Positions 12,377 through 55,692 are shown, numbered from the stretch's first letter. The stretch is 60,582 bases of DNA from Candidatus Levyibacteriota bacterium (GCA_029260905.1 JAJDCH010000006.1:1-60582), one strand, 5' to 3'. Notes: generated from the sequence alone by a model not told the origin. Made by a program: numbers and translations.

Positions 12377-12782
12377 AGGGTGAAGGGTAAAGATAAAATA
12401 GATGGTAAAATCATATAAAGAACTCATTGTTTGGAAAAAATCAATGGAGATGGTAAGATTTATTTATCAACTAACAGAAAGCTTTCCAAAAGACGAGCTA
12501 TATGGTTTACGGTCTCAGATGGAAAGATCTGCTGTTGCAATCCCAAGCAATATTGCAGAGGGATATTTGAGACGACATCGCAAAGAGTATGTTCAGTTTT
12601 TATCAATATCCCTCAGCTCTGCAGCTGAACTTGAAACACAAATTCTTGTTTGTAAATCATTAAAAAAGTTTAAACATATAGATTTTTCTGAAACAGAATC
12701 ATTACTAAATGAGGTATTAAAAATGTTATTTGTTATGATAAATAAGATGGCTTGACGCTTAACCCTTAACGCTTTACGCTTA
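12368..12782. mobile_element. Four-helix-bundle gene enclosed by inverted heptamer arrays (full element)
   Basis: Left arm AAAGCGT-GAAGGGT-GAAGGGT-AAAG (12368-12392, contains the tktA stop); right arm CTTG-ACGCTTA-ACCCTTA-ACGCTTT-ACGCTT (12751-12782) is its near reverse complement. Mobility is inferred. Confidence 0.65.
12402..12755 (+). CDS. Four-helix-bundle protein (23S rRNA IVP / TIGR02436 family)
   Basis: SYKELIVWKKS, FPKDELYGLRSQMERSAVAIPSNIAEG, SAAELETQ signature. Confidence 0.92.
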   Translation: MVKSYKELIVWKKSMEMVRFIYQLTESFPKDELYGLRSQMERSAVAIPSNIAEGYLRRHRKEYVQFLSISLSSAAELETQILVCKSLKKFKHIDFSETESLLNEVLKMLFVMINKMA

Positions 12783-12785
12783 AAT

Positions 12786-13778
12786 ATGTTAAATCCAAAC
12801 TTAAAACTAAATACAAAATTATTTGACGTAGACGTTGAAAAAAAACCAACCCGCGCAGGCTTTGGCACAGGCCTTCTTGCTCTTGGCAAAAAAGACAAAA
12901 ATGTAGTCGGGCTTTGTGCTGATCTCACAGAGTCAACCCAAATGAACCTTTTTGCTGATGCATTTCCTGAGAGATTTTTCCAAGTCGGTGTTGCTGAGCA
13001 AAATATGGCAGCAGTTGCAGCAGGACTAGGAGTTACTGGCAAAACAGCTTTTATTTCCAGTTATGCTACTTTCTCCCCTGGTAAAAATTGGGAAACAATC
13101 AGAACCACAATTGTTTACAACAAAGCAAATGTCAAAATAGCAGGCCATCATTCAGGAATCATGACAGGTCCTGATGGAGCAACTCACCAAGCAACTGAGG
13201 ATATAGCCATAACACGCTGCTGGCCGGGTATTGAAGTATATGTTCCATGTGATGCAATTGAAGCAGAAAAAGCAACTATTGCGTCTGCTAAAACACAAAA
13301 ACCAGTTTATCTTCGCTACTCAAGAGACAAAACTCCGCTAATCACAACTGCAGATACACCTTTTGAGGTAGGCAAACTACAGGACTTCTGGGTCAGTGAA
13401 AATCCGCAAGTAACTATCTTTGCAACAGGCTATATGCTTTACTATGCATTAGTTGCCGCAAAAGAGCTTGAAGATGAAGGCATAAATACAATAGCTGTAA
13501 ATGTCGCAACCATTAAACCACTTGACTCAAATGAAGTTCTCAAATTTACCAATCAAACAAGCGCTGTTGTAACAGTTGAAGATCATCAAATAACAGGCGG
13601 CATGGGCAGTGCAATTGCTGAATCTCTGGCCAAAACCAATCCCCTGCCGATTGAGTTTGTCGGCATGCAAGACGTATTTGGCGAAACAGGAACACCAGCC
13701 CAACTCTTAAAGAAATACAAAATGAATCCTGAAGCAATCAAAGAAGCTGTAAAAAGAGTGATACGTAGAAAGCGTTAA
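12786..13778 (+). CDS. tktB: Transketolase, C-terminal subunit
   Basis: TRAGFG, ADLTES, GVAEQNM, GPDGATHQ, PVYLR, IKPLD, VEDH, GMGSAIAE. Confidence 0.95.
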   Translation: MLNPNLKLNTKLFDVDVEKKPTRAGFGTGLLALGKKDKNVVGLCADLTESTQMNLFADAFPERFFQVGVAEQNMAAVAAGLGVTGKTAFISSYATFSPGKNWETIRTTIVYNKANVKIAGHHSGIMTGPDGATHQATEDIAITRCWPGIEVYVPCDAIEAEKATIASAKTQKPVYLRYSRDKTPLITTADTPFEVGKLQDFWVSENPQVTIFATGYMLYYALVAAKELEDEGINTIAVNVATIKPLDSNEVLKFTNQTSAVVTVEDHQITGGMGSAIAESLAKTNPLPIEFVGMQDVFGETGTPAQLLKKYKMNPEAIKEAVKRVIRRKR

Positions 13779-13840
13779 GGGTAAAGCGTCAAGGGTGAAG
13801 TTTTTTTCTTTCCCCTTAGCGCTTAGCGCTTTCCCCTTAA
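13769..13840. repeat. Empty inverted heptamer-array hairpin (AAAGCGT/AAGGGT class)
   Basis: AAAGCGT-TAAGGGT-AAAGCGT-CAAGGGT-GAAG, T7 loop, CTTT-CCCCTTA-GCGCTTA-GCGCTTT-CCCCTTA. Confidence 0.85.
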
Positions 13841-13845
13841 ATATT

Positions 13846-17926: not shown

Positions 17927-17927
17927 A

Positions 17928-18278
17928 AAATAACCCAATACTACCAATAACCCAATCAGCAAATCAATGCAGAATACCAGATGTAGAATAATTTGTTTCT
18001 TTACCTTCTTTTCTAACTATTGCATATTTTGCAATAAAATCTTTTCTGCTATCTGTTCCGTCTGCTTCTTGATCGTTTGCTCCCATTGAAGTAGCTGAGC
18101 GTGTTATCTGAGTTATTATAATAATATTCTCAGGAGTCTTTGGAAGTTGTTTTACTAATTTTAAAATCCTTATTATAAATTGATAAATTCTTTCATGAAT
18201 ATCCTGAATCTTTTCTGTGTTTTGCATTGGATTATTGATTAGTAGTATTTGTAGTATTGGTTTATTTGTTTATTTATT
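17928..18278. mobile_element. Inverted octamer arrays enclosing a truncated four-helix-bundle gene
   Basis: Arm 17928-17981 (AATAACCC/AATACTACC/AATCAGCA) and arm 18214-18278 (reverse complement AATAAACA/AATACTAC/AATAATCC). Mobility is inferred. Confidence 0.6.
17964..18227 (-). pseudogene. Four-helix-bundle (IVP family) gene lacking its C-terminal helix
   Basis: DIHERIYQF...LPKTPEN...QITRSATSMGANDQEADG...DFIAKYAIVRKEGKETNY then abruptly STSGILH*; roughly 30 aa shorter than the 117-aa paralogue. Confidence 0.75.
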
Positions 18279-19253
18279 AACCATCTCCTCCATCTCATCT
18301 CTTGTCAGAAGCCCTGCTTCAGCGCCTATGTGGCCAACCACTGATGAGGAATTGACAGCTCCCCAACCCATCGCATCAGGAATATTCATTCCCTGAACAA
18401 TTGCAGCCAAGAAGCCTGAAGCATATGCATCCCCTGCTCCTGTCCGCTCTATCGGCTCTCCAGGAATCAATCCGCGAAGGTAAAAATTACCATCCATATC
18501 AAGCGCGCTTGATCCTTCCTTGCCATTTGTTATTACCACAACACGTGGTCCCAATTTCTGCAACTCTTTGGATAATTTACGGATATACTCCTCACTATCA
18601 TCATCTGTTTTTTTATAGTGACCATAAAGAATACGCTCAGCCTCCTCTTTGTTTACAAAAAGAGCTTCAGTATTTCTAATTACTTCTTCGAATACTTCTC
18701 CTTGATCTTTAAGCTGGGTACTTCCAGGATTAAATGCTATTTTGGCTTTTTGCTTTTTGACAAAATCAAGAACTGTTTTATAAGGCTTTTCCCATTCTCT
18801 TCCTAGACTAGTCAGATAAATCCAACCTGCCTCTACATCCTCTAAATGAAAATCATGCTCCTGCTCACGCTCTTCAGCAAAAATAGTCCGATCTCCTGCA
18901 AAATTTATAATAACCGACAGGTTTGATGGCGCGTTTCTCTTCTCAACCATCAAAAGCCTTTCAATATTTTCTTTAGCAAGGCTATTTCTGATTTTAATTG
19001 AAAATTCATCATCCCCAACCTCTGCAACAATAGTTGCCTTGACACCAAGTCTAGACAAACCAACAGCCACATTAGCAGCATTTCCACCCATTTGAAATAC
19101 ATATTCATCAACCACTATCTTTTCACCAAGGCGAAAACAAACCCCGCCTGCATGTACACTGTCCTTATGCAATTCTTTTTGAGAATCATGAATTTTCATG
19201 TAGGCATCCAGCCTGGCAGTTCCAACTGTTATCACATCATATTTTCTGACCAT
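18270..19253 (-). CDS. PfkB-family carbohydrate kinase
   Basis: GGNAANVAVGLSRLG, FNPG, NKEE, VITNGKEGS, ERTGAGDAYASGF. Confidence 0.92.
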   Translation of the reverse strand: MVRKYDVITVGTARLDAYMKIHDSQKELHKDSVHAGGVCFRLGEKIVVDEYVFQMGGNAANVAVGLSRLGVKATIVAEVGDDEFSIKIRNSLAKENIERLLMVEKRNAPSNLSVIINFAGDRTIFAEEREQEHDFHLEDVEAGWIYLTSLGREWEKPYKTVLDFVKKQKAKIAFNPGSTQLKDQGEVFEEVIRNTEALFVNKEEAERILYGHYKKTDDDSEEYIRKLSKELQKLGPRVVVITNGKEGSSALDMDGNFYLRGLIPGEPIERTGAGDAYASGFLAAIVQGMNIPDAMGWGAVNSSSVVGHIGAEAGLLTRDEMEEMVNK

Positions 19254-21880: not shown

Positions 21881-21979
21881 ATGATTTACTTAATACTTAT
21901 CGGAGCTTTAGTTTTTATCCCATTTCAGTTGTGGAAAATTCTCAAACCCCAACCAGCCAAAACACCCTCTAACAAATAA
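21881..21979 (+). CDS. Unannotated 32-aa single-TM peptide (MIYLILIGALVFIPFQLWKILKPQPAKTPSNK)
   Basis: Read directly; hydrophobic N-half and basic tail; lies just downstream of a near-consensus promoter. Confidence 0.55.
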   Translation: MIYLILIGALVFIPFQLWKILKPQPAKTPSNK

Positions 21980-21982
21980 CTC

Positions 21983-22100
21983 TCTAATTTTAATATCTAA
22001 ACACCAAATAAATCCAAAATATAAATATCTAATTTGTTTTGGAATTTGTACTTTTACTATTTGGTATTGTTTAGGATTTAGAATTTAGAGCTTAGGATTT
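21983..22100. repeat. Empty inverted heptamer-array hairpin (TCTAAAT class)
   Basis: AATATCT-AAACACC-AAAT...AAATATCT then GGAATTT...AGGATTT-AGAATTT-AGAGCTT-AGGATTT; overlaps the msrB stop. Confidence 0.75.
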
Positions 22101-30487: not shown

Positions 30488-30595
30488 AATTCTAAACTCT
30501 AAATACTAATATCTAAATCCTAAATAATTTCAAAATTCTAATTTAGAAATCATATTGTTTTGTACTTTTACTTTCGGTCATTTGATATTATTTAA
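30488..30595. repeat. Empty inverted heptamer-array hairpin (TCTAAAT class)
   Basis: AATTCT-AAACTCT-AAATACT-AATATCT-AAATCCT arm and GTACTTT-TACTTTC...GATATTATTT arm between the prs stop and recR start. Confidence 0.75.
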
Positions 30596-31657
30596 CTCCT
30601 CAGCTATCATCTCCGCAACACTGAGTGTTTCAAGTTTTTCAAATCTCTTTTCCTCTGGCACAAATACAGAATCTGTTACAAAAACCTTTTCAACATCTGA
30701 TCTTTGCAAAAGTATTGGCGCATCTGATGAAAAAATCGGATGAGTAACAAATGCAAAAAATCTCTCAAACCCCTTTTCTTTCAAGAGCTTAATCGCTTCA
30801 ATAATTGTCTTGCCGCTTGATGTCATATCATCAACTATAAATGCAGTTTTTGCCGTATCTGGCAGCTCGCCTTCTATTCTGTTGGTCTGTATCTCACCTG
30901 TTGCCAGATCACGATCCTTAACTGTTGCAATCCAGGGCATACTGTCCAAGTCGCTTGATATCATCTTTATCCGCCTCAGACCACCCATATCTGGGGAAAC
31001 GAGAACAGCATTTTCAAAAAAGTGGGATGACTGTCCACTTGCAGATGAATTGAAAACCGATTTGTTCTCATTATCATTATTCAAATCTGCTCCTGATCGT
31101 TTTTCGCTTAGCGAGGATTGTTCTAAGTCTGAATCTTCATCCGCGAAAGGCCGAGCGCCATCTGCAACGTGCGACAGACTTCCCACTCCCATCAAGCCTT
31201 TTATCTTCTCTGCAAACATCGGCAATGCCGAAAGCTCAATCTGAGGAATATGAAAAAACTCAGGGATTTTGATACTGTGAAGATCAAGCGTGATGATGCG
31301 ATCAACTTTCAAGGACTCCAAAATCTTTATCATTACCTTCAGGGAAACTGCCTCACCATCTCGAAAGACATGATCCTGTCTCTGATAGCCAACATATGGC
31401 ATCACAACTGTCACAGATCTAGCGCCAGACCTTTTTAGCGCATCAATGATAAAAAATAATTCTGTGTAGCTATTGTCAACTGGCGTAGCTGTTGATTGGA
31501 CAACAATTGTGTCATCGTCTACTACTCTTTCATTTAATTTAATTCTTCGCTCTCCATCAGGAAAAACAAATACTTCAACAGGACTAAGAATCAAACCTAA
31601 ATGATCCGCAATTTTTTCTGCCAAAGGTTTATTAAAACTCCCGCTAAATATCTTCAT
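30578..31657 (-). CDS. prs: Ribose-phosphate pyrophosphokinase paralogue 1, with ~55-aa insertion
   Basis: FPDGE, YQRQD, DLHS, VSPDMGG, VDDMTSSGKT; extra segment before ENAVLVSPD. Confidence 0.9.
   Translation of the reverse strand: MKIFSGSFNKPLAEKIADHLGLILSPVEVFVFPDGERRIKLNERVVDDDTIVVQSTATPVDNSYTELFFIIDALKRSGARSVTVVMPYVGYQRQDHVFRDGEAVSLKVMIKILESLKVDRIITLDLHSIKIPEFFHIPQIELSALPMFAEKIKGLMGVGSLSHVADGARPFADEDSDLEQSSLSEKRSGADLNNDNENKSVFNSSASGQSSHFFENAVLVSPDMGGLRRIKMISSDLDSMPWIATVKDRDLATGEIQTNRIEGELPDTAKTAFIVDDMTSSGKTIIEAIKLLKEKGFERFFAFVTHPIFSSDAPILLQRSDVEKVFVTDSVFVPEEKRFEKLETLSVAEMIAEELNNIK
31021..31187. mobile_element. In-frame miniature inverted-repeat element inside prs
   Basis: Terminal IR AGTGGGA-TGA-CTGTC-CAC-TTGCAGATG / CATCTGCAA-CGTG-C-GACAG-ACT-TCCCACT plus internal hairpins. 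Confidence 0.6.
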
Positions 31658-31701: not shown

Positions 31702-32694
31702 TTACAGGATCAGATCACGGCTTAAGGATTCTCCTGTTTGAATTCTTCTAATTGCCTCAGCAAGAAGCGGTGCTATGGTTACAATCTTTACTTTTTTATT
31801 TTTTGCAACCTCTACTCTTTGCTTTAGCGTATCAGTTATTATGACCTCTTTTATGGGAGATTTGTTGATTATATCCATTGCTTTTCCAGAAAAAAGCCCA
31901 TGAGTTACGGCCACCCTTACAGACAAAGCGCCTCTCCGCTTTAAATACTCCGCTGCCTTTACAATCGTTCCTCCAGTATCAAGCATATCATCTACTAGTA
32001 AAATTCTCTTTCCCCCAACTTTTCCAATCATTCCCATTGCCTCAGACTTATTATTAACTGCTATATCCCGCTCTTTATAAACAAGAGCAACACCCTCTGC
32101 GCCCAAGAGCTTGGCATATGCTGTAGCTCTCACCAATCCCCCTTTATCTGGTGAGGCAACCACCAATCCTTCCAGTTTTTCTGACTTGATTGCGGGAAGA
32201 AGTGCAAATGATCCGTATAAATTATCCCATGGAATTTGCGTAAATCCTTGCTGTTGCTCTGAATGAATATCAAGCGTGAGAATCCTTGAAGCACCAGCAT
32301 TTGTAATCATATTGGCAACAACTGATGAAGAAATAGGAACTCTTGGCATTTCTTTTCTATCCTGCCTACTGTAGCCAAAATATGGAATTACAGCAGTTAT
32401 CTCAGCTGCGCTAGAACGCCTTACTGCATCTATCATAAGAACCAACTCCATTATATTGTCATTGACCGGAACGCTAGTTGGCTGGATTATAAAAACATGA
32501 CGTCTTCGCATGTTTTGTGGAATTCTAACTCTTATCTCACCATCTGAAAAGCTGGTAATTGGTTCATAAAGTTTTTGCCCCAAAAGCTTTGCAATATCTC
32601 GTGCTAGTTGAGGATGAGATCTTCCTGTCAAAAGAATAGAATCTTCAACAAATTTTGATAATGTTTTTCTGATTGATGTTCTTGAAATAGTCAT
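31702..32694 (-). CDS. prs: Ribose-phosphate pyrophosphokinase paralogue 2
   Basis: FSDGEI, PYFGYSRQDR, DIHS, ASPDKGG, VDDMLDTGGT, THGLFS. Confidence 0.95.
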   Translation of the reverse strand: MTISRTSIRKTLSKFVEDSILLTGRSHPQLARDIAKLLGQKLYEPITSFSDGEIRVRIPQNMRRRHVFIIQPTSVPVNDNIMELVLMIDAVRRSSAAEITAVIPYFGYSRQDRKEMPRVPISSSVVANMITNAGASRILTLDIHSEQQQGFTQIPWDNLYGSFALLPAIKSEKLEGLVVASPDKGGLVRATAYAKLLGAEGVALVYKERDIAVNNKSEAMGMIGKVGGKRILLVDDMLDTGGTIVKAAEYLKRRGALSVRVAVTHGLFSGKAMDIINKSPIKEVIITDTLKQRVEVAKNKKVKIVTIAPLLAEAIRRIQTGESLSRDLIL

Positions 32695-32697
32695 TAT

Positions 32698-32780
32698 GTA
32701 ATCAACAAATCATCTAACTCCAAATCAACTAATAATCCACTTAATCAAATTTGTTTATTAGTTGATTTACTACTTCTTGA
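32698..32780. repeat. Empty inverted octamer-array hairpin
   Basis: Perfect 14-bp IR AAATCAACTAATAA (32722-32735) / TTATTAGTTGATTT (32755-32768) inside 8-mer periodic arms. Confidence 0.8.
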
Positions 32781-32781
32781 T

Positions 32782-33069
32782 TTACTTTCCGCCCAACATT
32801 CCTGCAAGTCCACCCATGCCCCCAGCCATGCTTTGCATTTTTTTAGCTGCTACTTCTTGAGATTTCTTAACAGCTTCATTAATAGCTTTTCTTATGTCAT
32901 CATCAGATTTGCCGTTTGATTTTATTTCCCTTATCTCTTGATCACCTGATATCCGTACATATACTCCGTGCTTGCTTATTTCAACTTCTTCAGCTTTTAG
33001 CTGCTTCTGAATCGCCATCGCCTGATCACGCATTTTTTTCAATTCTCCGAGTTGTGAAAATGGATTCAT
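32782..33069 (-). CDS. ybaB: YbaB/EbfC nucleoid-associated protein
   Basis: QAMAIQKQL, VRISGDQEI, AINEAVKKSQ; located between dnaX and recR. Confidence 0.88.
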   Translation of the reverse strand: MNPFSQLGELKKMRDQAMAIQKQLKAEEVEISKHGVYVRISGDQEIREIKSNGKSDDDIRKAINEAVKKSQEVAAKKMQSMAGGMGGLAGMLGGK

Positions 33070-33096
33070 AATAAAATCACCTACCTTTCATTTTTA

Positions 33097-34641
33097 CTAT
33101 TTCAATTCTACAACAATATCTACACTATTTCCAGTAAGCATTTTCGCAGCTCTTGAAAGACTTTCCTGCACTTTTACATCATCTAGTCTTTCTTTGTGAA
33201 ATTTAAATTTTGATTCAATTAAAAGCATTTTTTTATCATAACTTTTTAATCTGCAACCCCGCAAGACTCCTGCAATTGTATGATTGTGATTTTTCATTTC
33301 ATCTATTAGACTATTCCAGAGAGTATCAAGCCACTCAGGTGTTATCTCAGAGCTTGATGTATGCATTAACTCAATTGAAGGCTTGGTATTTACCTTTTCA
33401 GTATTTGTTGCTTTTTTAGAAATGGATCCATTTATGGCATTTTCCTTTGCGATATTACCAATCTTTTTTTTAAAATCTCCTATATTGCCAGTACCGTATT
33501 TTGACTGACTTTTAACCCCTTCTACTCCTTTATCAACTTCCAAATTTTCAGCTGTTGCTTCACGTGTTTTTATAGAATACTCAATCACTGCAAGCTCCAG
33601 CGGAAGCTGTGGAAGAACTGAGTATTTCATCTCCTGATATGATTTTGAGAGAATATCAAAAAGCAAAGCAATCTCAGCTATTTCAAAATTAGCACCAGGT
33701 ATTTCAAATACCTCTTGGGTTGCATTTGTTTTGGAGAGAAGAAGTTTGTGGAGCGTTTCTATAACCTGCTGCAAAAAATATCTAAAATCAATTCCCGTTT
33801 CAGTTAATTTTGAAATTGTTTTCATGCCTTCCCCACTATCTTTTTTATAAAGTGAAGCAAGAAGCGCTATAACATAATGATTTATACTTGTAACTCTGTA
33901 TTTTTCCTCAATCATTTCTCCTGTTATCTTCTTGCCGTTTGACTGCATCACAATCTCCTCCAATATCTTTGTCCCATCCCTAAATCCGCCATCCGACAAA
34001 TGAGCAATTGATAAAAGAGCCTCATCATCAATAGCAACCCTCTCGCCTTTTGTTATACGTTTGAATGAACGAATCAGCTCCATGTCAGTTGCCAAATGAA
34101 AAGAAATATGAAAACATCGCGATACAATTGTTGATGGAACTTTTTCAAGAGCGGTCGTACAAAGTATAAATATGGCATGATTCGGTGGCTCTTCAAGTGT
34201 CTTAAGAAGTGCATTAAATGCCTCAGTTGTTAGCATATGAACCTCATCTATTATATAGACCTTCTTGCTTGCGGAAATAGGCGAAAGCCCAATTTTTTCC
34301 TTTAGATCACGTATCTCATCTATCCCCCTATTACTTGCCCCATCTATCTCCAGAATATCCATATTTGTTCCTTCAGTAATTGATAGACATTGATCACATT
34401 TATTACAAGGCTCTATTTCCCTCCCCTTTACGCTTTCCCCCTTACGCTTTTTGTCAGTACAATTAAGGACTTTAGCTACAATTCTGGCTGTTGATGTTTT
34501 ACCAAGACCCTTTGGGCCTGTGAAGAGAAATGCATGCGGAGTATTTTCCTGATTTTTTAGAACCGATAAAAGACTTTCCCTTACCTTTTCACTATCTAAA
34601 TCATCAATAATCTGTGGTCTGTATTTTCTATAAAAAACCAT
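33097..34641 (-). CDS. dnaX: DNA polymerase III subunit gamma/tau
   Basis: FYRKYRPQ, GPKGLGKTS, EIDGASNRGID, IIDEVHML, FNALLKTLEEPP, TIVSRC. Confidence 0.97.
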   Translation of the reverse strand: MVFYRKYRPQIIDDLDSEKVRESLLSVLKNQENTPHAFLFTGPKGLGKTSTARIVAKVLNCTDKKRKGESVKGREIEPCNKCDQCLSITEGTNMDILEIDGASNRGIDEIRDLKEKIGLSPISASKKVYIIDEVHMLTTEAFNALLKTLEEPPNHAIFILCTTALEKVPSTIVSRCFHISFHLATDMELIRSFKRITKGERVAIDDEALLSIAHLSDGGFRDGTKILEEIVMQSNGKKITGEMIEEKYRVTSINHYVIALLASLYKKDSGEGMKTISKLTETGIDFRYFLQQVIETLHKLLLSKTNATQEVFEIPGANFEIAEIALLFDILSKSYQEMKYSVLPQLPLELAVIEYSIKTREATAENLEVDKGVEGVKSQSKYGTGNIGDFKKKIGNIAKENAINGSISKKATNTEKVNTKPSIELMHTSSSEITPEWLDTLWNSLIDEMKNHNHTIAGVLRGCRLKSYDKKMLLIESKFKFHKERLDDVKVQESLSRAAKMLTGNSVDIVVELK

Positions 34642-34661
34642 ACTTCTCCTTTCAGTCGAAG

Positions 34662-34763
34662 AATACTACAAATAAACAAATAAGCCAATAAACAAATTTA
34701 TTGGAGATTTTTAATTGAGTTATTGATTGGTAGTATTTGCATATTGGGTTATTGATAGTATTT
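34662..34763. repeat. Empty inverted octamer-array hairpin
   Basis: AATACTACA-AATAAACA-AATAAGCC-AATAAACA versus ATTGAGTT-ATTGATTG-GTAGTATTTG...TAGTATTT. Confidence 0.8.
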
Positions 34764-35148
34764 ACTCGTGGTGCAGGCCGAGCAGATGATGCATACTGTG
34801 TCTGACCAACTCATCCACTTTCTCATCCACCAACACCTCATCTCTTGACGCCTCTTTTATAACCATTGGGTAAGATATCACAATATCTCCAAGCCTTACT
34901 ACACCTGCTGGCAGATGAGTCTCCTCTCCCTCACCAAGCGGAAATGATAAAACATTGGTTGTTCCGTCTTTATCACGATACTTTTTATTCAGGAGCGTCA
35001 TTTTCCGATCTCCTACTATTGCAATAGAAACTTCAACTGGACTTTTTACCTCTTGTTCTTCAAGCACCTGAGAAACCGCGAACTTTATTTTCTTCCGGTT
35101 CACTTTATACCTGCTCTCAACGTAAATAAGTACTTTGATATTTTCCAT
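34762..35148 (-). CDS. ybeY: rRNA maturation endoribonuclease YbeY
   Basis: LNKKYRDKDGTTNVLSFP, LGDIVIS, HSMHHLLGLHH. Start at MENIK. Confidence 0.93.
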   Translation of the reverse strand: MENIKVLIYVESRYKVNRKKIKFAVSQVLEEQEVKSPVEVSIAIVGDRKMTLLNKKYRDKDGTTNVLSFPLGEGEETHLPAGVVRLGDIVISYPMVIKEASRDEVLVDEKVDELVRHSMHHLLGLHHE

Positions 35149-35151
35149 TAC

Positions 35152-35229
35152 AATCGACAAATCAACTAATTACTCACCATCTCTTATTTAGTAATTGGCT
35201 GATTGGATAATTTGTATATTGGTTGATTA
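35152..35229. repeat. Empty inverted octamer-array hairpin
   Basis: AATCGACA-AATCAACT-AATTACTC versus ATTGGCTG-ATTGGATA-ATTTGTAT-ATTGGTTG-ATT. Confidence 0.75.
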
Positions 35230-35415
35230 TGTTAGCTTTACTCTCGCTGCTTCTTCTTGCTTGAGCTTTTTCTTCAGCTTTTTTGCAAGCGAAGGCTTGA
35301 GATAAAACTGTCTCCTCTTTGCTTCCTGCACGATCCCTGCATCCATTACTTTTCTGGAAAAATTTCTGATTACCTGATCGTCTGACTGACCAGGCATTTT
35401 CTTAACATGTACCAT
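35227..35415 (-). CDS. rpsU: 30S ribosomal protein bS21
   Basis: 62 aa; VIRNFSRKV...EAKRRQFYLKPS...KKK. Confidence 0.88.
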   Translation of the reverse strand: MVHVKKMPGQSDDQVIRNFSRKVMDAGIVQEAKRRQFYLKPSLAKKLKKKLKQEEAARVKLT

Positions 35416-35554
35416 AAATTAAAAAACACCACCTTTCTATTTCCCTTATTTTACTCCAAATCCCGCCTGCTGTAAACTGCCACAAAGTCACAAAAGCCAA
35501 AAAATACTACAGGATTGACAACCCCTTATAAAGACTGCTAGAATTAATCTATCT

Positions 35555-36532
35555 ATGGAGACGGATACACCGGAAGCACAGGAAACACCACGACTAACAG
35601 AAAAAAAAGAACCAACAACTCTTGAACTTATAACAAAAGCTAAGGAGCTGTTTTTAGAAATCCCTCCTGATTTTATATTAGGCCAAGATGCAAGAGTATT
35701 AATTAATTTTAAAGAAAATGATCCTACTAATAGTGTTTCTCTAACTATATTAAAAGAACATTCCAAAATGAACACCAAGTGGGATCTTACACGAATAACG
35801 CTCTTTTCTAATGCCGAAACAGGCGAAGAAGGTGGATCTTTAGAGAAGGGAAAATTTAATCCCCTTAATGGCAATGAGGACATAGACAAAGATCCAAGCC
35901 AGAATGGAAGGTCAGAATTGGAGAAACAAAATCATCTTAAGCAAAAATTTTCTGGAATCTTAAGATCTATTAAAGACAAACTTACTTCTAGTGATCAAGT
36001 AGCACCAGAAGACACAGAAAGTGATCCTGTTTCTTCTCCGGAATTTAATGTGAAAAATACAATTTCTGAATTACTTGTTTTAGCAAGAAAATTAATCAAA
36101 AAAATACCTGATGTAAAACAATCAGACTATGATGCTGATGGGCAAGGTGAGAGAAATCTTTCGGGAGATTTTTATATTGCTGGGAAAGAAGCGTCTGTAG
36201 ATCTTGACGTTATACTTGATGATAAGGGGCAACCTCTTCCAGGAACAGAAAATTTTTCGCTTGCAGTCCCCTTTGGAAGAGGACCAACTGGCAGAATTGA
36301 AATCGAGATACTTCAAATACCTGCGCTTGGCATAAATTATCGAAGAATAGAAAACACACAAGGTAAGAATGGAAGTTTTCTAAAAAAAGAACCAACTACC
36401 CCTAGTAAAGAAAATAATAATTACCAAGAGCATATTACAGATGAAAATATGTTAGACAAAGGACCAGACGCAGGGGTAGCTAAAATTAAAACTGTTCTAA
36501 ACGGCCTAAATACAATGTTTAGTGATAGATAA
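35555..36532 (+). CDS. Hypothetical protein, possible internal domain duplication
   Basis: 325-aa ORF; TTLELITKAKELFLEIP resembles TISELLVLARKLIKKIP. Confidence 0.6.
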   Translation: METDTPEAQETPRLTEKKEPTTLELITKAKELFLEIPPDFILGQDARVLINFKENDPTNSVSLTILKEHSKMNTKWDLTRITLFSNAETGEEGGSLEKGKFNPLNGNEDIDKDPSQNGRSELEKQNHLKQKFSGILRSIKDKLTSSDQVAPEDTESDPVSSPEFNVKNTISELLVLARKLIKKIPDVKQSDYDADGQGERNLSGDFYIAGKEASVDLDVILDDKGQPLPGTENFSLAVPFGRGPTGRIEIEILQIPALGINYRRIENTQGKNGSFLKKEPTTPSKENNNYQEHITDENMLDKGPDAGVAKIKTVLNGLNTMFSDR

Positions 36533-36550
36533 ATCCCTCACAATAACTAA

Positions 36551-36877
36551 CTACATCCCGTCCGTCTTCTTCATAGGTCCCATGAGGTGGATGTGGAAAT
36601 GAGGGATCGCTTCTGCTCCTCCTGCATTGATACCAACTCGATAGCCTTTCCCGCCTGACAAGCCCTGCTCTTTGGCTACCTTTTTGACAACTTCCATCAA
36701 TTTCTGTAGCAAATCGGGTGCAACTTCTGATAATTCTGAAAGGTGTTTTTTGGGGATTGTTATCAAATGAACTGGTTTCACGGGGTGGATATCAGGAAAT
36801 ACCAGCACTTCTTCGTCTTCATAAACGATTTCTGCCGGCAACTCTTTTCTGATAATTTTACAAAAAACACAATCCAT
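36551..36877 (-). CDS. HIT-family nucleotide hydrolase
   Basis: DCVFCKI, FPDIHP, HLITIPKKH, HFHIH histidine triad. Start at MDCVF. Confidence 0.93.
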   Translation of the reverse strand: MDCVFCKIIRKELPAEIVYEDEEVLVFPDIHPVKPVHLITIPKKHLSELSEVAPDLLQKLMEVVKKVAKEQGLSGGKGYRVGINAGGAEAIPHFHIHLMGPMKKTDGM

Positions 36878-36880
36878 AGG

Positions 36881-36931
36881 TAATAAACCAATCAACTAAT
36901 TATCCAATGCAATTTGTTTATTAGTTGATTA
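36881..36931. repeat. Empty inverted octamer-array hairpin
   Basis: AATAAACC-AATCAACTAAT ... ATTTGTTT-ATTAGTTGATT. Confidence 0.8.
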
Positions 36932-37825
36932 TATCCTCTCAAGCACTTTAATAATATCTGTAAGTTTTAATTTGGTTGGTTTCATTTTGGGATTTTTGGA
37001 TGAACCATTAAGAAGCATTTTTTTGGAAACATGCAAATACCATGTTGCCTCAGGATCCATTTTGCTCAGCTGGTCGTGCGCTGACGTCAAATCAATTCCC
37101 GGATTATCTGGTGTCTCAGGAAGAGTTTTGATCGCCACATTGCCTCTTCTTGGATCTTTTTTAACCACCAGCACATATCCCATTTTTTGACCCAATTTTA
37201 ATACCTGCTCATTCATCGTCTCAACTCCCAACGCTCCCCCCTTGGACGTTTCAAATTCAATTCCTTTTTCTTTTATTTCTTTTTCTGCCCAAATCCTACT
37301 TTCAAATTCATGAAAAAGCGCGTCCAGACACTCCATCCCAAAAACCACATAATAACTATCCTGTCCTGGCTTTGCATATTTAAGACCCTCAAGAACTCCG
37401 ATTAAAGAAAATTCATACTGATCAGATGCAGGATCCGCCCAAAAAACCTCCCGAAAATGATCTATCTCAACTACTACTTTTACGATTCTTTGCAGCGATT
37501 CTTTATGCTCTTGTGTCAGATGTTGTCCGTTTTTTTCCAAAAAATCCAAAACATAATCCATTGTCCTGCTCATACCACAAACATCTCTATCTGATGTCTG
37601 ATGATGATCAAGCGGACCCATACCTGTATCAACCTGCAGCACCTCATCATCCCCGATAATCTCAATTGGATCTTTTACATCCTCACCCTTTACATTCCCC
37701 ACTCTACTTCCTGCAGGGACAAATTGAACATTGGCGTCTTGCCAGCCAGGAAAAAACTTCTTGATAATCCAAACAGACCCGATCGCATCCCAATCTGGTG
37801 AGACATGGGTGACAATAACTTTCAT
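36929..37825 (-). CDS. DHH/MYG1-like phosphoesterase
   Basis: THVSPDWDA, DTG and DHHQ motifs. Confidence 0.6.
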   Translation of the reverse strand: MKVIVTHVSPDWDAIGSVWIIKKFFPGWQDANVQFVPAGSRVGNVKGEDVKDPIEIIGDDEVLQVDTGMGPLDHHQTSDRDVCGMSRTMDYVLDFLEKNGQHLTQEHKESLQRIVKVVVEIDHFREVFWADPASDQYEFSLIGVLEGLKYAKPGQDSYYVVFGMECLDALFHEFESRIWAEKEIKEKGIEFETSKGGALGVETMNEQVLKLGQKMGYVLVVKKDPRRGNVAIKTLPETPDNPGIDLTSAHDQLSKMDPEATWYLHVSKKMLLNGSSKNPKMKPTKLKLTDIIKVLERI

Positions 37826-38055: not shown

Positions 38056-38610
38056 ATGGATCCTCAATCTCTTAATAATCTTGATCCCAAACTCCGCGAA
38101 ACTTACGAACGCGTAATGGGTGGTGCGGCAAGCGCAGCCAGAGCAGCGGTCCCAGATCAAAATACATCAGAGGATACGAATTTACCTGATAATCCTCCGC
38201 CACCATCCTCATTTCAAGTCCCACAAGGACCCGAACTCACACCAAAACCATCTGATACGCTAGCTGTATCGCCTGATGATAACGATCAACAACCTATCCA
38301 AACCCAACCAGAACAACCCCAGCAGTCAACTGAACAGCCAGAACCAAAAGCAACTTTCTCAACTCCTCTTAGTCAGCAAAACCAACAGATTAATACTCCG
38401 CAGCCAACTGGCCCTGTTAATCTGCCTGATCTAAACAATGTCCCCAACCTGTCAGAAAACAAGAATGCGAACAATCAAGCGCATGAAGCTCAGGAAACGT
38501 CTCCTGTTCTTAAAATTCTATACATTTTCGGAGGAACTGTATTTTTCCTGATCTATATTTTTCTCTGGGCCAAAATCTTCAAACTCCCAATCCCCTTCCT
38601 ATCGTTCTAA
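38056..38610 (+). CDS. Hypothetical Pro/Gln-rich protein with C-terminal TM
   Basis: Start moved to MDPQSLNNLDPKLRETYERVMG (TATAAA 7 nt upstream); disordered middle; C-terminal TM. Confidence 0.65.
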   Translation: MDPQSLNNLDPKLRETYERVMGGAASAARAAVPDQNTSEDTNLPDNPPPPSSFQVPQGPELTPKPSDTLAVSPDDNDQQPIQTQPEQPQQSTEQPEPKATFSTPLSQQNQQINTPQPTGPVNLPDLNNVPNLSENKNANNQAHEAQETSPVLKILYIFGGTVFFLIYIFLWAKIFKLPIPFLSF

Positions 38611-38697
38611 TTGGAATTAGAAATTAAGAATTAGGAAATTACATCTCTGTCTCACATATATTAAAACCGTCGCATTTTCCGCGTTCGCGGGATTTTG

Positions 38698-46837: not shown

Positions 46838-46846
46838 ATTTTGAAA

Positions 46847-46956
46847 ATTTCTAAGCTCTAATTTCTAATTACCTAATCAAATCCTAATTATAAATTTATA
46901 AATTAGGTTTTAGACATTTTTTAGAAATTAGGTTAATTTAAGTCAATTAGGAATTA
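46847..46956. repeat. Empty inverted heptamer-array hairpin (TCTAAAT/TTCTAAT class)
   Basis: ATTTCTA-AGCTCTA-ATTTCTA-ATTACCTA versus TAGAAAT-TAGGTTAAT...TAGGAAT between the tsf stop and frr start. Confidence 0.8.
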
Positions 46957-46962
46957 CAAAAA

Positions 46963-51800: not shown

Positions 51801-52795
51801 TTATTTTTTATTTTTGGGTCTTCTCTTCTCTCCTGCCTTAAGCTTTGGTAAAGGGTCATAATATCCGCCGGCCACAGTCAGCTCTGCCTTGATAGTCGGG
51901 TGTGGTTCGTAGCCGATCAACTCAACGTGTTCGGGTCGAAAATCTGACAAACCCTTGAATTTGCCAAGTTTTAGCTTTGGAAAAGACTTTGGTTTTCTTT
52001 TCAGCTGCTCTTTAACTTGTGCTACATGATTTTCATAAATATGCGCATCACCATATGTATGGATAAACTCCCCGGGTTTATAACCCAAGATTTTGGCAAG
52101 TATCACAGCAAGAAGTGAATAACTGCCGATATTAAAAGGCACACCAAGAAACATATCACAACTTCTCTGATACAGATGCAGCGACAACTTGTTGTCTTTG
52201 ACACTTACCTGATACATATTGTGACAAATTGGAAAATATGATGTCTCATCTTTCTCCGCCATACTGTAGAGATATTCAGGATTCCAGCTGTTAACTATTG
52301 CGTTTCTGGCATCAGGGTCTTCACTCAATTCTTTAATTACCCATGAGAGCTGATCAATTGTCTTCCCTTTTTTCCTTGTCGGCCATCTCCTCCACATCTC
52401 TCCATAAATACGCGGCAGCTCTCCCCATTTCTTGGCAAACTTCGCATCTGTCCTAATCTTTTCTATAAACTCCTCTTTTGTCAGCTTTTTGCTTTTTGCT
52501 TTTTGCTATATATCTTATATGGGTAGTCATCCCAGATGTGGACATTGTTATCAACTAGATATTTGATGTTGGAGTTACCTGACAAGAACCAATACAGCTC
52601 CTTGAGAACTCCGTTCCAGTACACTCTTTTGGTTGTCAAAAGCGGAAAACTTTCTGACAAATCATACCTAGACTGTCTACCAAAAACGCTGTATGATTTG
52701 ACCCCAGTCCCTCGATCTACATTGACAACTCCATTTTTGAGGATGTCTTTGAGAAGATCTAAATATTGATGCTCTTGATGTTTGTCTCCTGCCAT
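51801..52795 (-). pseudogene. thyA: Thymidylate synthase split by a frameshift in a (GCAAAAA)3 repeat
   Basis: N-part: QYLDLL, DRGTG, FPLLTTKRV, ELYWFLSG, IWDDY. C-part in another frame: LTKEEFIEK...WGELPRIYG, PICH, QRSCDMFLGVPFN, DAHIYENH. Confidence 0.85.
52486..52506. repeat. Perfect heptamer tandem repeat (TTTTTGC)3
   Basis: Read directly at the thyA frame break. Confidence 0.9.
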
Positions 52796-52854
52796 AATAT
52801 CTACCCAATACTACCAATAACCAAGTAAACAAATCAAGCAATAAATTTTCCACC

Positions 52855-52892
52855 ACACATCTTTTTACAACGATCGTTTCAAAAAGATGTGT
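52855..52892. repeat. 38-bp imperfect palindrome
   Basis: ACACATCTTTTT-ACA-ACGATCGT-TTC-AAAAAGATGTGT. Confidence 0.85.
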
Positions 52893-54142: not shown

Positions 54143-54180
54143 ACACATTTTTTATACACGATCGTGTATAAAAAATGTGT
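54143..54180. repeat. Perfect 38-bp palindrome
   Basis: ACACATTTTTTATACACGATCGTGTATAAAAAATGTGT equals its own reverse complement. Confidence 0.92.
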
Positions 54181-54866: not shown

Positions 54867-54871
54867 AAATT

Positions 54872-54941
54872 AAATAAATCAGCAAATCAACTAATTCCCA
54901 ATCATCTAATTATCCAATTAACTTGCTGCTTGGTTGATTGC
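54872..54941. repeat. Inverted octamer-array hairpin with one arm inside the tmk 3' end
   Basis: AATAAATC-AGCAAATC-AACTAATT-CCCAATCA-TCTAATTA versus ACTTGCTG-CTTGGTTG-ATTGC (encodes AINQAAS*). Confidence 0.65.
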
Positions 54942-55589: not shown

Positions 55590-55593
55590 AAAA

Positions 55594-55689
55594 AATCAAC
55601 TAATTTCCAATTAACCAATCATCTAATTATAAACCCTCAAAATGTATTGTTTAATTTGTTGATTGGTTTATTAGATGATTTGTTTATTA
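55594..55689. repeat. Empty inverted octamer-array hairpin
   Basis: AATCAACT-AATTTCC-AATTAACC-AATCATCT-AAT versus ATTGTTTA-ATTTGTTG-ATTGGTTT-ATTAGATG-ATTTGTTT-ATT. Confidence 0.85.
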
Positions 55690-55692
55690 CAA

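Follow-up and report, generated by a model that had tools for sequence, protein, structure and literature searches.

Results

Octamer arrays at four housekeeping junctions

The window, that is, the whole 60,582-nucleotide stretch of DNA from a Candidatus Levyibacteriota bacterium analysed here, contains a stretch of housekeeping genes that all lie on the minus strand, and the names prs, ybaB, dnaX, ybeY, rpsU and HIT were confirmed by Pfam. ORF298, which adjoins HIT, had been labelled DHH in an initial sequence-only reading, but it matches nothing in Pfam or NCBIfam and the label is therefore unverified. Four gaps between these genes are occupied by AAT-N5 octamer arrays in inverted orientation, all of them ORF-less and treated as unstranded: the palindrome H1 at ybaB|prs (32695-32781), the palindrome H2 at ybeY|dnaX (34662-34761), the array H3 at rpsU|ybeY (35150-35226) and the short palindrome H4 at ORF298|HIT (36879-36928). 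On the sense strand, each array starts in or right after the native TAA stop codon (GGK-TAA|ATCAAG, HHE-TAA|ATACTA, KLT-TAA|TCAACC and TAA|TCAACT), and each flanking gene pair is co-directional. These data bear out the sequence-only reading in that inverted octamer arrays fill all four gaps, abut or overlap the upstream stop codon and lie between co-directional genes. The junctions are not strictly consecutive as it had stated, because dnaX|ybaB (27 nt, with its own Shine-Dalgarno (SD) sequence) and prs|prs2 (44 nt) are array-free, leaving four of the six co-directional junctions of this stretch occupied. Likewise, the perfect cores of 11-14 bp that it had described are present in H1 (14 bp) and H4 (11 bp) but not in H2 (at most 8 bp) or H3 (less than 8 bp).

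H1 extends from the ybaB TAA stop to 5 nt before the prs ATG, and H3 abuts the true start of ybeY, the ATG at 35149. A 20-nt SD module, CTTCGACTGAAAGGAGAAGT (34642-34661, minus strand), lies on the outer end of H2 immediately upstream of the dnaX ATG. The sequence GACTGAAAGGAG was found at five distinct sites in the 2.1 Mb of fetched loci searched, four of which (the window through its Logan copy L081, L176 and twice L142) follow an A-type G-arm 3-4 nt ahead of an ATG. The 21-mer AATCAACTAATAAACAAATT is present unchanged in both H1 and H4 but missing from the only octamer-type cassette of the window. Logan contigs from a biofilm metagenome run reproduced H1-H4 with zero differences, so assembly of the window did not create the arrays. 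All the public runs found to contain this sequence are DNA runs.

Periodicity, folding and placement

The motif AAT-N5-AAT-N5-AAT occurs 21 times on both strands, always in intergenic DNA, which makes up 8.1% of the window, compared with 4.07 +/- 2.1 times (maximum 11) in dinucleotide shuffles; AAT at periods other than 8 gave 1-6 matches. Further, AATCAACT occurs 11 times versus 4.9 expected, a count reached in none of 100 shuffles, and octamer arrays supply five of the window's ten longest short-range inverted repeats (I3 in H1, I10 in H2, I7 in H4, and I1 and I6 in H6). Folding energies of the inverted arms range from -12 to -23 kcal/mol; the z-scores are -3.6 for H1, -2.1 for H2, -2.0 for H4 and -1.2 for H3, the fold of H3 being no better than those of shuffles. 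There was no folding advantage for the sense strand, which folded better in 6 of 11 elements, the antisense strand being about equal. When the inter-arm duplex was compared with one in which the unit order of one arm was shuffled, no gain was seen in 12 of 14 elements, indicating that a specific stem is not what is conserved. The pairing of the arms stems from the units they share and not from a mirrored stem.

Counting arrays of all flavours described below, 16 of 40 co-directional or convergent spacers in the 60 kb carry one, versus 0-1 of 10 divergent spacers. Depending on whether none or one of the divergent spacers is counted, the hypergeometric estimate for this enrichment is ~0.01 or roughly 0.07; for octamers alone it is ~0.14. 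The enrichment is only suggestive in 60 kb, and the stop/start junctions proposed as targets may simply be places where insertions survive, the genome being 92% coding.

Other arrays and two PF05635 cassettes in the window

The octamer class comprises at least seven loci in the 60 kb, all intergenic and each with inverted arms. Beyond the four gaps, unstranded members were found at the tmk|dCTP-deaminase-like junction (H5, 54867-54940), where one arm codes for the final Tmk residues, and at the dCTP-deaminase-like|tmk junction (H6, 55590-55692). H7 (17927-18292, minus strand), the "17928 class" of the sequence-only reading, has a truncated PF05635 gene (17964-18227, 87 aa) between two octamer arms, at 17927-17975 and 18228-18292. 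H8 (52796-52852, unstranded) is a single octamer arm upstream of thyA that has 20 nt in common with the 3' arms of H7 and of a cassette on another contig, L094. A pure heptamer run lies inside thyA, and heptamer arrays also occur in frame inside dnaX.

Two other flavours of 7-8-nt arrays are present elsewhere in the window. A heptamer-flavour cassette between the genes for the N-terminal and C-terminal parts of transketolase (12365-12785, plus strand) is composed of a G-arm of AAGCGTG/AAGGGTG units (12365-12401), a full-length PF05635 gene encoding 117 aa (12402-12755, E 6e-36) and a C-arm of CGCTTAA/CCCTTAA units (12756-12785). About 1 kb downstream, the junction of the transketolase C-terminal and FAD oxidase genes holds an unstranded ORF-less hairpin (13769-13845, fold -28.7 kcal/mol), the units of which are identical in kind to those of the cassette. 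The third flavour, made of CTAAAT/CTAATT units, occupies the prs2|recR junction (30488-30577, unstranded), with further arrays at 21960-22100, 38608-38640 and 46838-46962. Both the 17964-18227 and the 12402-12755 genes matched PF05635, the 23S rRNA intervening-sequence (IVS) protein family.

Orthologous junctions in relatives

Three relatives, L082, L084 and L085, have their genes in the same order (ORF298-HIT-(opposite gene)-rpsU-ybeY-dnaX-ybaB-prs), and none of them has arrays at the orthologous junctions. Their junctions measure -1 to 12 nt (e.g. TAA AAT ATG) versus 50-120 nt in the window: 3-12 nt at the H1 site, 3-5 nt at the H2 site in L084 and L085, -1 to 5 nt at the H3 site and 1-3 nt at the H4 site. 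The exception is the ybeY|dnaX spacer of L082, which is 87 nt long but array-free and unrelated. At prs2|recR, the relatives have an overlapping ATGA where the window has its third-flavour array. In L176, another octamer hairpin sits at the same ybeY|dnaX junction as H2, and a heptamer hairpin, of a different flavour, lies upstream of HIT. Judged by a HIT-like downstream gene start, the apparent ORF298|HIT junction holds octamer hairpins in L124 and L127 as well as this heptamer hairpin of L176. These comparisons show that H1-H4 are lineage-specific insertions, and they argue against the arrays being ancient terminators fixed in all relatives, which the sequence-only reading had named as the contrary case.

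PF05635 genes and their flanking arms

Inverted 7-8-nt arrays flank all ten PF05635 genes examined, two in the window and eight on other CPR contigs (one each on L002, L086, L090, L093 and L094 and three on L088). Most of these cassettes lie between housekeeping genes (tktN|tktC, ybaB|recR, mvk|mvd, sucC|sucD, trpS|ftsH, ruvC|ruvA and upstream of mreB), and their arms hold ~5 units. The 117-aa protein type is accompanied by AAGCGTN/AAGGGTN...CTTAACG arms (window, L086, L088 and L090) and the 87/120-aa type by AATNNNCN arms (window, L093 and L094), indicating that arm flavour co-varies with protein subfamily.

L093 and L094 carry full-length cassettes with the H7 protein subfamily and the same arms as H7. 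The 5' arm of this type ends in ...AATCAAT(A/T)(A/T)TCCA|ATG, and the 3' arms of the window and L094 agree without a difference over 28 nt. Relative to these two cassettes, the H7 gene has lost ~126 nt of the 3' part of its ORF, about one third of the gene, which identifies H7, by sequence comparison, as a half-deleted intermediate. Full-length 120-aa homologues of the H7 type are 85-90% identical, and PF05635 protein homologues as a whole fall at 70-81% and 85-90%, while the best DnaX match is 58%. The contigs on which such genes were found are mostly ~1 kb long. With a nucleotide identity of 77-80%, arms included, the cassettes are far more conserved between genomes than the housekeeping genes.

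Gene-less copies

The empty arrays have exact strings of 11-20 nt in common with foreign cassette arms, whereas none of 26 control spacers exceeds 10 nt; the 5' arm of H2, for example, equals the L093 cassette 5' arm over 20 nt. Two of the shared strings span the arm-ORF boundary, namely AATTATCCA|ATGCA, retained at the apex of H4, and TTGA|TTTGCTGATT in H5. In the metagenome copies L107, L110, L111, L112 and L124, ATGCAGAAT...ATTCTGCATTGA is kept around a short loop. The shared strings, the boundary-spanning matches and the same arms in L093 and L094 sustain the earlier assignment of the empty arrays to the element class of the 17928 locus, and sequence evidence of this kind supports their derivation from the PF05635 cassette by deletion. 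The sequence-only reading had called them non-autonomous; mobilisation in trans would be one origin of such copies, gene loss in place another.

A search of metagenomes with one arm 19-mer gave 86 matches in 80 loci returned from 91 stretches. Only 7 matches adjoin a PF05635 gene. Most of the others belong to gene-less hairpins (13 by strict score, ~27 by eye) or to single arms that border a gene start (~17), and ~15 are chance or coding matches. Gene-less copies thus outnumber gene-bearing ones. Neither presence/absence polymorphism nor an excision joint was found in the reads, which therefore give no direct sign of current mobility. There was also no consistent direct target-site duplication at the stop/start borders, where the unit structure leaves the element ends ambiguous.

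Discussion

Origin of the arrays

We propose, with a probability of roughly 0.62, that each of the four arrays is a copy, lacking the gene, of a small palindromic insertion cassette in which a gene for a PF05635 four-helix-bundle protein is normally present. The complete cassette comprises ~5 units of 7-8 nt, the PF05635 gene and ~5 inverted units of complementary type, inserted between adjacent host genes of these ultrasmall (CPR) bacteria that are usually co-directional and translationally coupled, and H1-H4, H5, H6 and H8 would represent the remnant, or the copied form, when the gene is missing. We infer that the cassette is a selfish unit, spreading both inside a genome and from one genome to another, and that gene-less forms originate when the ORF is lost from between its inner inverted repeats, ATGCAGAAT...ATTCTGCAT, after which they may persist or be copied onward. 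The arrays are probably co-transcribed with the operon and could be tolerated in that the two arms would place the upstream stop next to the downstream start, and some copies, such as H2, seem to bring their own SD module for the downstream gene.

Among the alternatives, a fairly improbable one is that the arrays are relics only, a full PF05635 cassette having once been present at each junction and its gene having decayed in place, with the gene-less arrays never copied. H7 would then be caught mid-decay, and the boundary strings of H4 and H5 as well as the silence of the reads on mobility would be expected. However, the 21-mer common to H1 and H4 does not occur in the window's only octamer-type cassette, compact gene-less forms recur across many metagenome contigs in excess of gene-bearing ones, and at least seven octamer loci in 60 kb would demand equally many independent insertions and losses.

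It is still less probable that the arrays are domesticated RNA elements of operons, that is, intercistronic stem-loops which set mRNA stability, processing or translational coupling and are kept for this function whatever their origin. Such a role would suit their restriction to transcribed spacers, which they fill from the stop codon almost up to the next start, the lack of an own SD sequence for prs, ybeY and HIT, which are tightly coupled in relatives, and the SD module on H2-type copies. In E. coli, REP elements near stop codons are reported to influence mRNA stability and translation. But three relatives manage without arrays at the same junctions, unrelated flavours occupy one junction in different genomes, the sense strand has no folding advantage, the stem register is not conserved and no Rfam family matches.

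It is very unlikely that the arrays are simple sequences which arose locally, through slippage during replication of AT-rich TAA-AAT-ATG junctions, and never moved from one site to another. The units are indeed short (7-8 nt) and degenerate, the array starts coincide with the TAA and AAT of the junction, thyA has its pure heptamer run, and heptamer repeats, the commonest class of long simple sequences in bacteria, are in some genomes concentrated upstream of start codons (PMC4679880). Slippage, however, would not lead one to expect exact multi-unit strings of 14-28 nt common to different loci and to genomes at ~55% DnaX identity, nor an inverted two-arm architecture linked to one protein family in ten of ten cases. 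Finally, intrinsic transcription terminators or attenuators were rejected as scarcely credible despite the position of the hairpins directly after stop codons, since the stems are not G+C-rich and have no T-run, a terminator scan found no such site in any array, and the arrays split rpsU|ybeY and ybaB|prs, pairs that are coupled in relatives and have no promoter-like site between them.

Comparison with known systems

If the arrays are gene-less cassette copies, as we favour, they can be compared with the IVSs of 23S rRNA (Leptospira and Coxiella; S23p/PF05635 ORF), in which, as here, a protein of the same family is encoded in the loop between complementary ends, and the ORF-less IVSs of Salmonella and others would be the counterpart of H1-H4. 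The rRNA IVSs, with and without ORFs, are sporadically distributed and have apparently spread horizontally (PMC4990558), and the rRNA genes of CPR bacteria, too, contain PF05635 ORFs as well as short insertions that have no ORF (PMC11270868). In contrast, the 23S IVS sits in rRNA helix 25 or 45 and has ends forming a near-perfect 28-bp stem, whereas the present arrays sit between protein-coding genes and their ends consist of ~5 degenerate 7-8-nt units. Neither rRNA nor any other Rfam family was detected in the window.

REPIN-RAYT systems likewise have multi-copy short palindromic extragenic repeats and a protein gene flanked by the same repeats, and, as with the arrays here, several repeat flavours can coexist in a genome, each linked with a protein variant of its own (PMC3116915). 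Unlike the PF05635 four-helix bundle, the RAYT protein is an IS200-like HUH/Y1 transposase, and its gene is single-copy, whereas the PF05635 gene is multi-copy and itself looks mobile; REPIN repeats also differ from the periodic unit arrays described here. No RAYT was found among the array-flanked genes, all of which encode PF05635 four-helix bundles (part of the window's ORFs scanned). Bacterial MITEs and the REP/BIME elements of E. coli are likewise small non-coding palindromes, present in many copies in the transcribed spacers that follow genes, but the present arrays are distinguished by unit periodicity and an exact stop-to-start fit, and neither target-site duplication nor a parent transposase was found for them. 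The TAACTGA repeats of Beggiatoaceae and the cyanobacterial STRR are tandem 7-nt intergenic units that, as here, often end a few nt before a start codon (PMC4679880). They are, however, direct arrays of one unit, with one inverted case reported, while the present arrays have two inverted arms, mixed units and other sequences, and no link of TAACTGA/STRR to PF05635 has been described.

The PF05635 proteins here share a homologous fold with Avd, the accessory protein of diversity-generating retroelements (NF033474 DivGenRetAVD E 1e-6, Pfam bAvd 1e-5). Assignment as Avd was rejected, because the Avd model score is below cut-off (29 versus 80 bits) and no reverse transcriptase (Pfam) or obvious template/variable repeat pair lies beside the window's PF05635 genes, the neighbours of which are transketolase halves, an aldolase and a PfkB kinase.

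A possible protein-repeat system

To our knowledge, PF05635 has no known transposase activity and no known nuclease or recombinase motif. Binding of PF05635 proteins to the arrays is plausible by analogy, since the homologue Avd is an RNA-binding pentamer, the arms hold ~5 units and the PDB relatives 2gsc and 2rld have 5 chains each. The periodic units would then be putative binding sites of a pentameric protein and not strands of a precise stem, and the folded RNA might be cut by RNase III, as in rRNA IVSs. TRAP and PUF proteins are known to read periodic motifs, and the units could be read on single-stranded RNA or DNA in a TRAP- or PUF-like manner. The Avd pentamer itself is positively charged and binds its RNA over a segment of ~27 nt (PMC6182149). 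We tentatively suggest, as a possibility with the odds against it, that PF05635 proteins and their flanking arrays form a new type of protein-repeat system, in which a pentamer reads five tandem units, one per subunit, with a unit "language" of its own for each subfamily, and drives the copying, or controls the processing, of its own cassette and of the many gene-less arrays in operon junctions and in rRNA, where they are known as IVSs. If true, this would provide a function for the long-unexplained 23S-IVS protein family and would connect the housekeeping operons of CPR bacteria with a selfish protein that binds RNA.

Octamer arrays between housekeeping genes

The window, from a Patescibacteria (CPR) bacterium of a probably Microgenomates-type lineage, has a G+C content of 38% and carries on its minus strand prs2 (30578-31657; Pfam and ORF call), the Pfam-assigned genes prs (31702-32694), ybaB (32782-33069), dnaX (33097-34641), ybeY (34762-35149), rpsU (35227-35415) and HIT (36551-36878), and a 298-aa ORF (ORF298, 36929-37825), which has no Pfam or NCBIfam match to support the DHH label it had received in the sequence-only reading. 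AT-rich arrays occupy four of the six co-directional junctions of this stretch: ybaB|prs (H1), ybeY|dnaX (H2), rpsU|ybeY (H3) and ORF298|HIT (H4). Four junctions are thus filled as had been described, but they are not strictly consecutive; dnaX|ybaB, for example, has its own Shine-Dalgarno (SD) site in all genomes compared and no array. On either strand, each array consists of a G-poor arm with units such as AATCAACT, AATAAACA, AATTATCC, AATCATCT and AATACTAC, followed by a complementary C-poor arm. The 5' border lies within or directly after the upstream TAA, and the 3' border lies 1-15 nt short of the next ATG or, in H2, short of an SD module carried by this array (CGACTGAAAGGAG). Between HIT and rpsU, a 325-aa ORF without a Pfam or NCBIfam match lies on the opposite strand (35555-36532, +); the gene at this position in relatives is CofD-like or hydrolase-like.

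The motif AAT-N5-AAT-N5-AAT occurs at 21 sites in the window, against 4.1 +/- 2.1 expected from dinucleotide shuffles and 1-6 for other spacings, and all 21 sites fall within the intergenic 8%. They belong to seven loci, which are H1-H4, two further gene-less arrays (H5, 54867-54940; H6, 55590-55692) and both flanks of a gene at 17964-18227. When local inverted repeats across the window are ranked by length, octamer arrays account for five of the top ten; TRF at low score was too noisy for an array census. The arrays in the four junctions are confirmed: in independent Logan contigs from a public biofilm metagenome, H1-H4 are base-for-base identical. The public runs in which this sequence was found are all DNA runs; a search for RNA runs gave none. 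Breakage of public contigs at the hairpins was ruled out by a Logan contig running intact through H1 and H2, and reads at ~6x depth revealed no variants, joints or excisions.

Perfect cores of 11-14 bp, earlier attributed to the arrays as a group, were found in H1 (14 bp) and H4 (11 bp) only. Fold z-scores range from -3.6 for H1 (strongest) to -1.2 for H3 (weakest), and an Rfam search and tRNA scan of the window gave no match. In a test for RNA-level selection, sense and antisense folding were equal with no strand bias, and shuffling the unit order of one arm left the duplex between the arms just as stable in 12 of 14 elements; both results are evidence against a precisely selected RNA stem. 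Conservation is seen instead in which units are used, in their inverted orientation and in their number (~5 per arm).

Insertion, probably repeated, at the same junctions

The gene order around H1-H4 is retained in three relatives, in which the corresponding gaps are much shorter: 1-3 nt against 50 nt in the window at ORF298|HIT, -1 to 5 nt against 77 nt at rpsU|ybeY, 3-5 nt (with one unrelated 87-nt spacer) against 120 nt at ybeY|dnaX, and 3-12 nt against 87 nt at ybaB|prs. The genomes compared are relatives at about 55-58% DnaX identity, not sister genomes: a protein search placed the nearest DnaX proteins at 54-58% identity, with "Patescibacteria group" and "Levybacteria" among their names, and a DnaX scan of genome contigs returned only distant genomes (<=34% identity) and no sister genome. 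Beside the arrays, the C-termini and TAA stops are unaltered (YbaB GGK*, RpsU KLT*, YbeY HHE*). These comparisons show that H1-H4 are insertions. Fixed ancient terminators had been named as the alternative; the three relatives have gaps of -1 to 12 nt (apart from the 87-nt spacer) and no arrays there, so the arrays are not ancient conserved terminators. A terminator scan was also negative in the arrays, which have neither a G+C-rich stem nor a T-run, making intrinsic termination very unlikely.

Other genomes have hairpins at the same places. In L176, a locus whose DnaX is 56% identical to that of the window, an octamer hairpin lies at ybeY|dnaX and is followed by CTTCGACTGAAAGGAGAAGC, which matches the SD module of the window at 19 of 20 positions, and the spacer upstream of HIT holds a heptamer hairpin of another flavour (unit type). 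Two further loci (L124 and L127) have octamer hairpins immediately upstream of a HIT-like start. The same junctions are therefore filled in some lineages and vacant in others, with differing flavours, a pattern for which repeated insertion is a better explanation than one ancient event per junction. The string GACTGAAAGGAG has five distinct sites in the 2.1 Mb of loci compared, four of which come directly after an octamer G-arm and 3-4 nt ahead of an ATG; this placement suggests that some elements supply a ribosome-binding site for the downstream gene. Array enrichment outside divergent promoter spacers (16/40 vs 0-1/10) is suggestive only.

PF05635 cassettes and their gene-less forms

The gene at 17964-18227 (-) encodes a truncated 87-aa protein of PF05635/TIGR02436 (Pfam/NCBIfam) and, with its octamer arms, forms H7 (17927-18292). 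A full-length PF05635 gene (12402-12755, +; E 6e-36) lies between the two transketolase genes, with heptamer arrays in inverted orientation on either side (AAGCGTG AAGGGTG ... CGCTTAA CCCTTAA), and the next junction holds a gene-less hairpin with the same heptamers (13769-13845). This "four helix bundle" family was originally discovered inside 23S rRNA intervening sequences (IVSs) and is large and widely annotated as "23S rRNA intervening sequence protein"; we know of no role for it outside the Avd protein of DGRs. Inverted 7-8-nt arrays flank all ten PF05635 genes sampled, that is, the two of the window and every gene reachable in other CPR contigs (n=8). Most of these cassettes lie between housekeeping genes, including ybaB|recR, mevalonate-pathway kinase|decarboxylase, sucC|sucD, trpS|ftsH and ruvC|ruvA, or upstream of mreB. 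Relatives of the 117-aa protein have AAGCGT/AAGGGT heptamer arms and those of the 87-aa protein (full-length 120 aa) have AATNNNCN octamer arms, so that arm flavour goes with protein subfamily. In the 120-aa-type cassettes, the 5' arm ends in ...AATCAAT(A/T)(A/T)TCCA|ATG CAG AA and the 3' arm includes ATTGGGTTATTGGTAGTATTGGGTTATT, with 28 nt identical between the window and L094.

The full-length cassette (12365-12785) splits the genes for the N-terminal and C-terminal parts of transketolase, and similar cassettes in relatives split sucC|sucD and ruvC|ruvA, so that sites separating the subunits of a single enzyme are tolerated by the cassette, or even preferred. In a Gottesmanbacteria locus (L090; 8084-8170 and 12034-12095), an empty heptamer hairpin (AGTAGTA.../...CATGCTA) lies exactly at ruvA|ruvB; the neighbouring ruvC|ruvA junction carries a PF05635 cassette whose flavour is different, and the locus also has an octamer G-arm with the unit vocabulary of the window. 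Two PF05635 genes (L088, 1081-2488; L093, 9019-10363) adjoin genes for tyrosine recombinases (Phage_integrase); one of the two also has an apparent tRNA gene and a TrwB/DUF87-type ATPase gene next to it and may sit in an integrated element.

Descent of the empty arrays from the class represented by H7, as the sequence-only reading had proposed, is well supported by strings shared with cassette arms and by boundary remnants. Arms included, the window cassette aligns with L093 and L094 at 77-80% nucleotide identity, and its ORF has lost the last third through a ~126-nt deletion relative to both. Exact strings common to the empty arrays and foreign cassette arms measure 20 and 18 nt in H2, 20 in H8 (a single arm upstream of thyA, 52796-52852), 14 in H4 and H6, 13 in H3, and 11 in H1 and H5, against a maximum of 10 nt and a median of 8 for 26 other spacers of the window. 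H4 retains AATTATCCA|ATGCA, in which the arm runs on into the opening five bases of the ORF, and H5 retains TTGA|TTTGCTGATT, in which the ORF stop is joined to the arm; an identical 21-mer is common to H1 and H4.

When metagenomes were scanned for a 19-mer from the 3' arm, 91 stretches contained it, and there were 86 matches among the 80 loci returned. Sorted approximately, by local alignment and inspection (a strict unit regex misclassified clear hairpins), 7 of the 86 have the PF05635 gene 37-45 nt upstream, 13 (strict score) to ~27 (by eye) are compact gene-less hairpins, ~17 are single arms against a gene start and ~15 are chance or coding. Many of the gene-less hairpins retain ATGCAGAAT...ATTCTGCATTGA around a short loop. 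In four loci (L177 at ~900-1000, L154, L156 and L162), the G-arm string ATTGGGTTATTGGTAGTATTGG... lies within ORFs and encodes a hydrophobic IGLLVVLV-type N-terminal segment; these coding copies are chance matches or arrays absorbed into genes. There are signs of spread: Levy-, Gottesman- and Daviesbacteria-type genomes encode homologues of the window's two PF05635 proteins at 70-81% and 85-90% identity, against 58% for the best DnaX match anywhere. The contigs with these homologues are mostly ~1 kb long, as expected for repeats.

Other repeats in the window

The thyA gene (51801-52795) is in two ORFs: one at 52481-52795 covers positions 1-84 of Pfam Thymidylat_synt, and one at 51801-52397 covers positions 98-266. 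The former ends just past a perfect sense-strand heptamer run (GCAAAAA x3.4, 52484-52507), which points to a frameshift at this 7-nt repeat; thyA would then be a pseudogene or phase-switched, unless the assembly is wrong here. Two near-identical intergenic palindromes, ACACATnTTTTnnACACGA|TCGTGTnnAAAAnATGTGT (54143-54180 and 52855-52892; 19+19 nt, with 100% and 89% complementarity), form a repeat family of their own, possibly an operator. A third 7-8-nt flavour (CTAAAT/CTAATT/AATTAG units; 30488-30577, 21960-22100, 46838-46962 and 38608-38640) occupies junctions including prs2|recR, where the genes overlap by ATGA in relatives, and EF-Ts|RRF; neither PF05635 gene of the window has arms of this type.

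Relation to known systems and mode of action

DGRs were ruled out, as no RT gene was present among the neighbours scanned. TIGR-Tas arrays, which have ~36-nt units and are associated with Tas, were set aside on these features. Intergenic heptamer repeats beside start codons are already known (PMC4679880); those are known as direct arrays, with no link to a PF05635 gene described. The nearest systems are 23S rRNA IVSs and REPIN-RAYT. IVSs have the same ORF family as the window system, have complementary ends and exist in forms with and without the ORF (PMC4990558), also in CPR rRNA genes (PMC11270868), and in REPIN-RAYT palindromic repeats of its own flavour flank a protein gene and have many gene-less copies (PMC3116915). 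The window system does not lie in rRNA and its protein is not a RAYT, so that it fails defining features of each, and it adds periodic-unit arms and stop-to-start placement. In the literature outside subscription journals, we found no description of PF05635 cassettes with periodic arms in operon or mRNA junctions.

Avd, a PF05635 homologue, forms a pentamer with a positive charge, which binds ~27 nt within its RNA (PMC6182149), and the two PDB relatives have five chains each. We favour the hypothesis that the array units would be binding sites for the PF05635 protein, which would account for arm flavour tracking protein subfamily. We further infer that the arrays may be transcribed across, fold and be cleaved. 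On the 60 kb examined, gene-less forms may be copied in trans or may be relics only, and junctions may be targets or simply the sole places where insertions survive. Survivorship is favoured by heptamer arrays in frame inside dnaX: just ahead of the zinc module, DnaX of the window has an in-frame insertion of 7-9 residues (RKGESVKGR; 34420-34455) with AAGCGT/AAGGGG-type heptamers, and the same loop in L176 has a ~20-residue insertion with GCTAGAC-type heptamers (1790-1850). In two relatives, too, TRF reported heptamer arrays that fall inside dnaX.

Overall, the interpretation offered by the sequence-only reading is partly supported. H1-H4 are ordinary copies of a cassette system, and the interest lies in the system. 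From the window and about ten related loci, PF05635 gains a consistent genomic behaviour. The PF05635 cassette lacks a promoter, has periodic arrays specific to the subfamily at both ends, goes between tightly coupled genes, even the halves of one enzyme (transketolase, succinyl-CoA ligase), and leaves many palindromes with no gene in its wake. This connects rRNA IVSs with cryptic intergenic repeats of heptamers and octamers and with the genome architecture of CPR bacteria in one testable picture. In practice, the arrays interrupt assemblies, give rise to spurious small ORFs and to apparent TM helices and displace gene starts, and they may account for missing SD sites in CPR operons.
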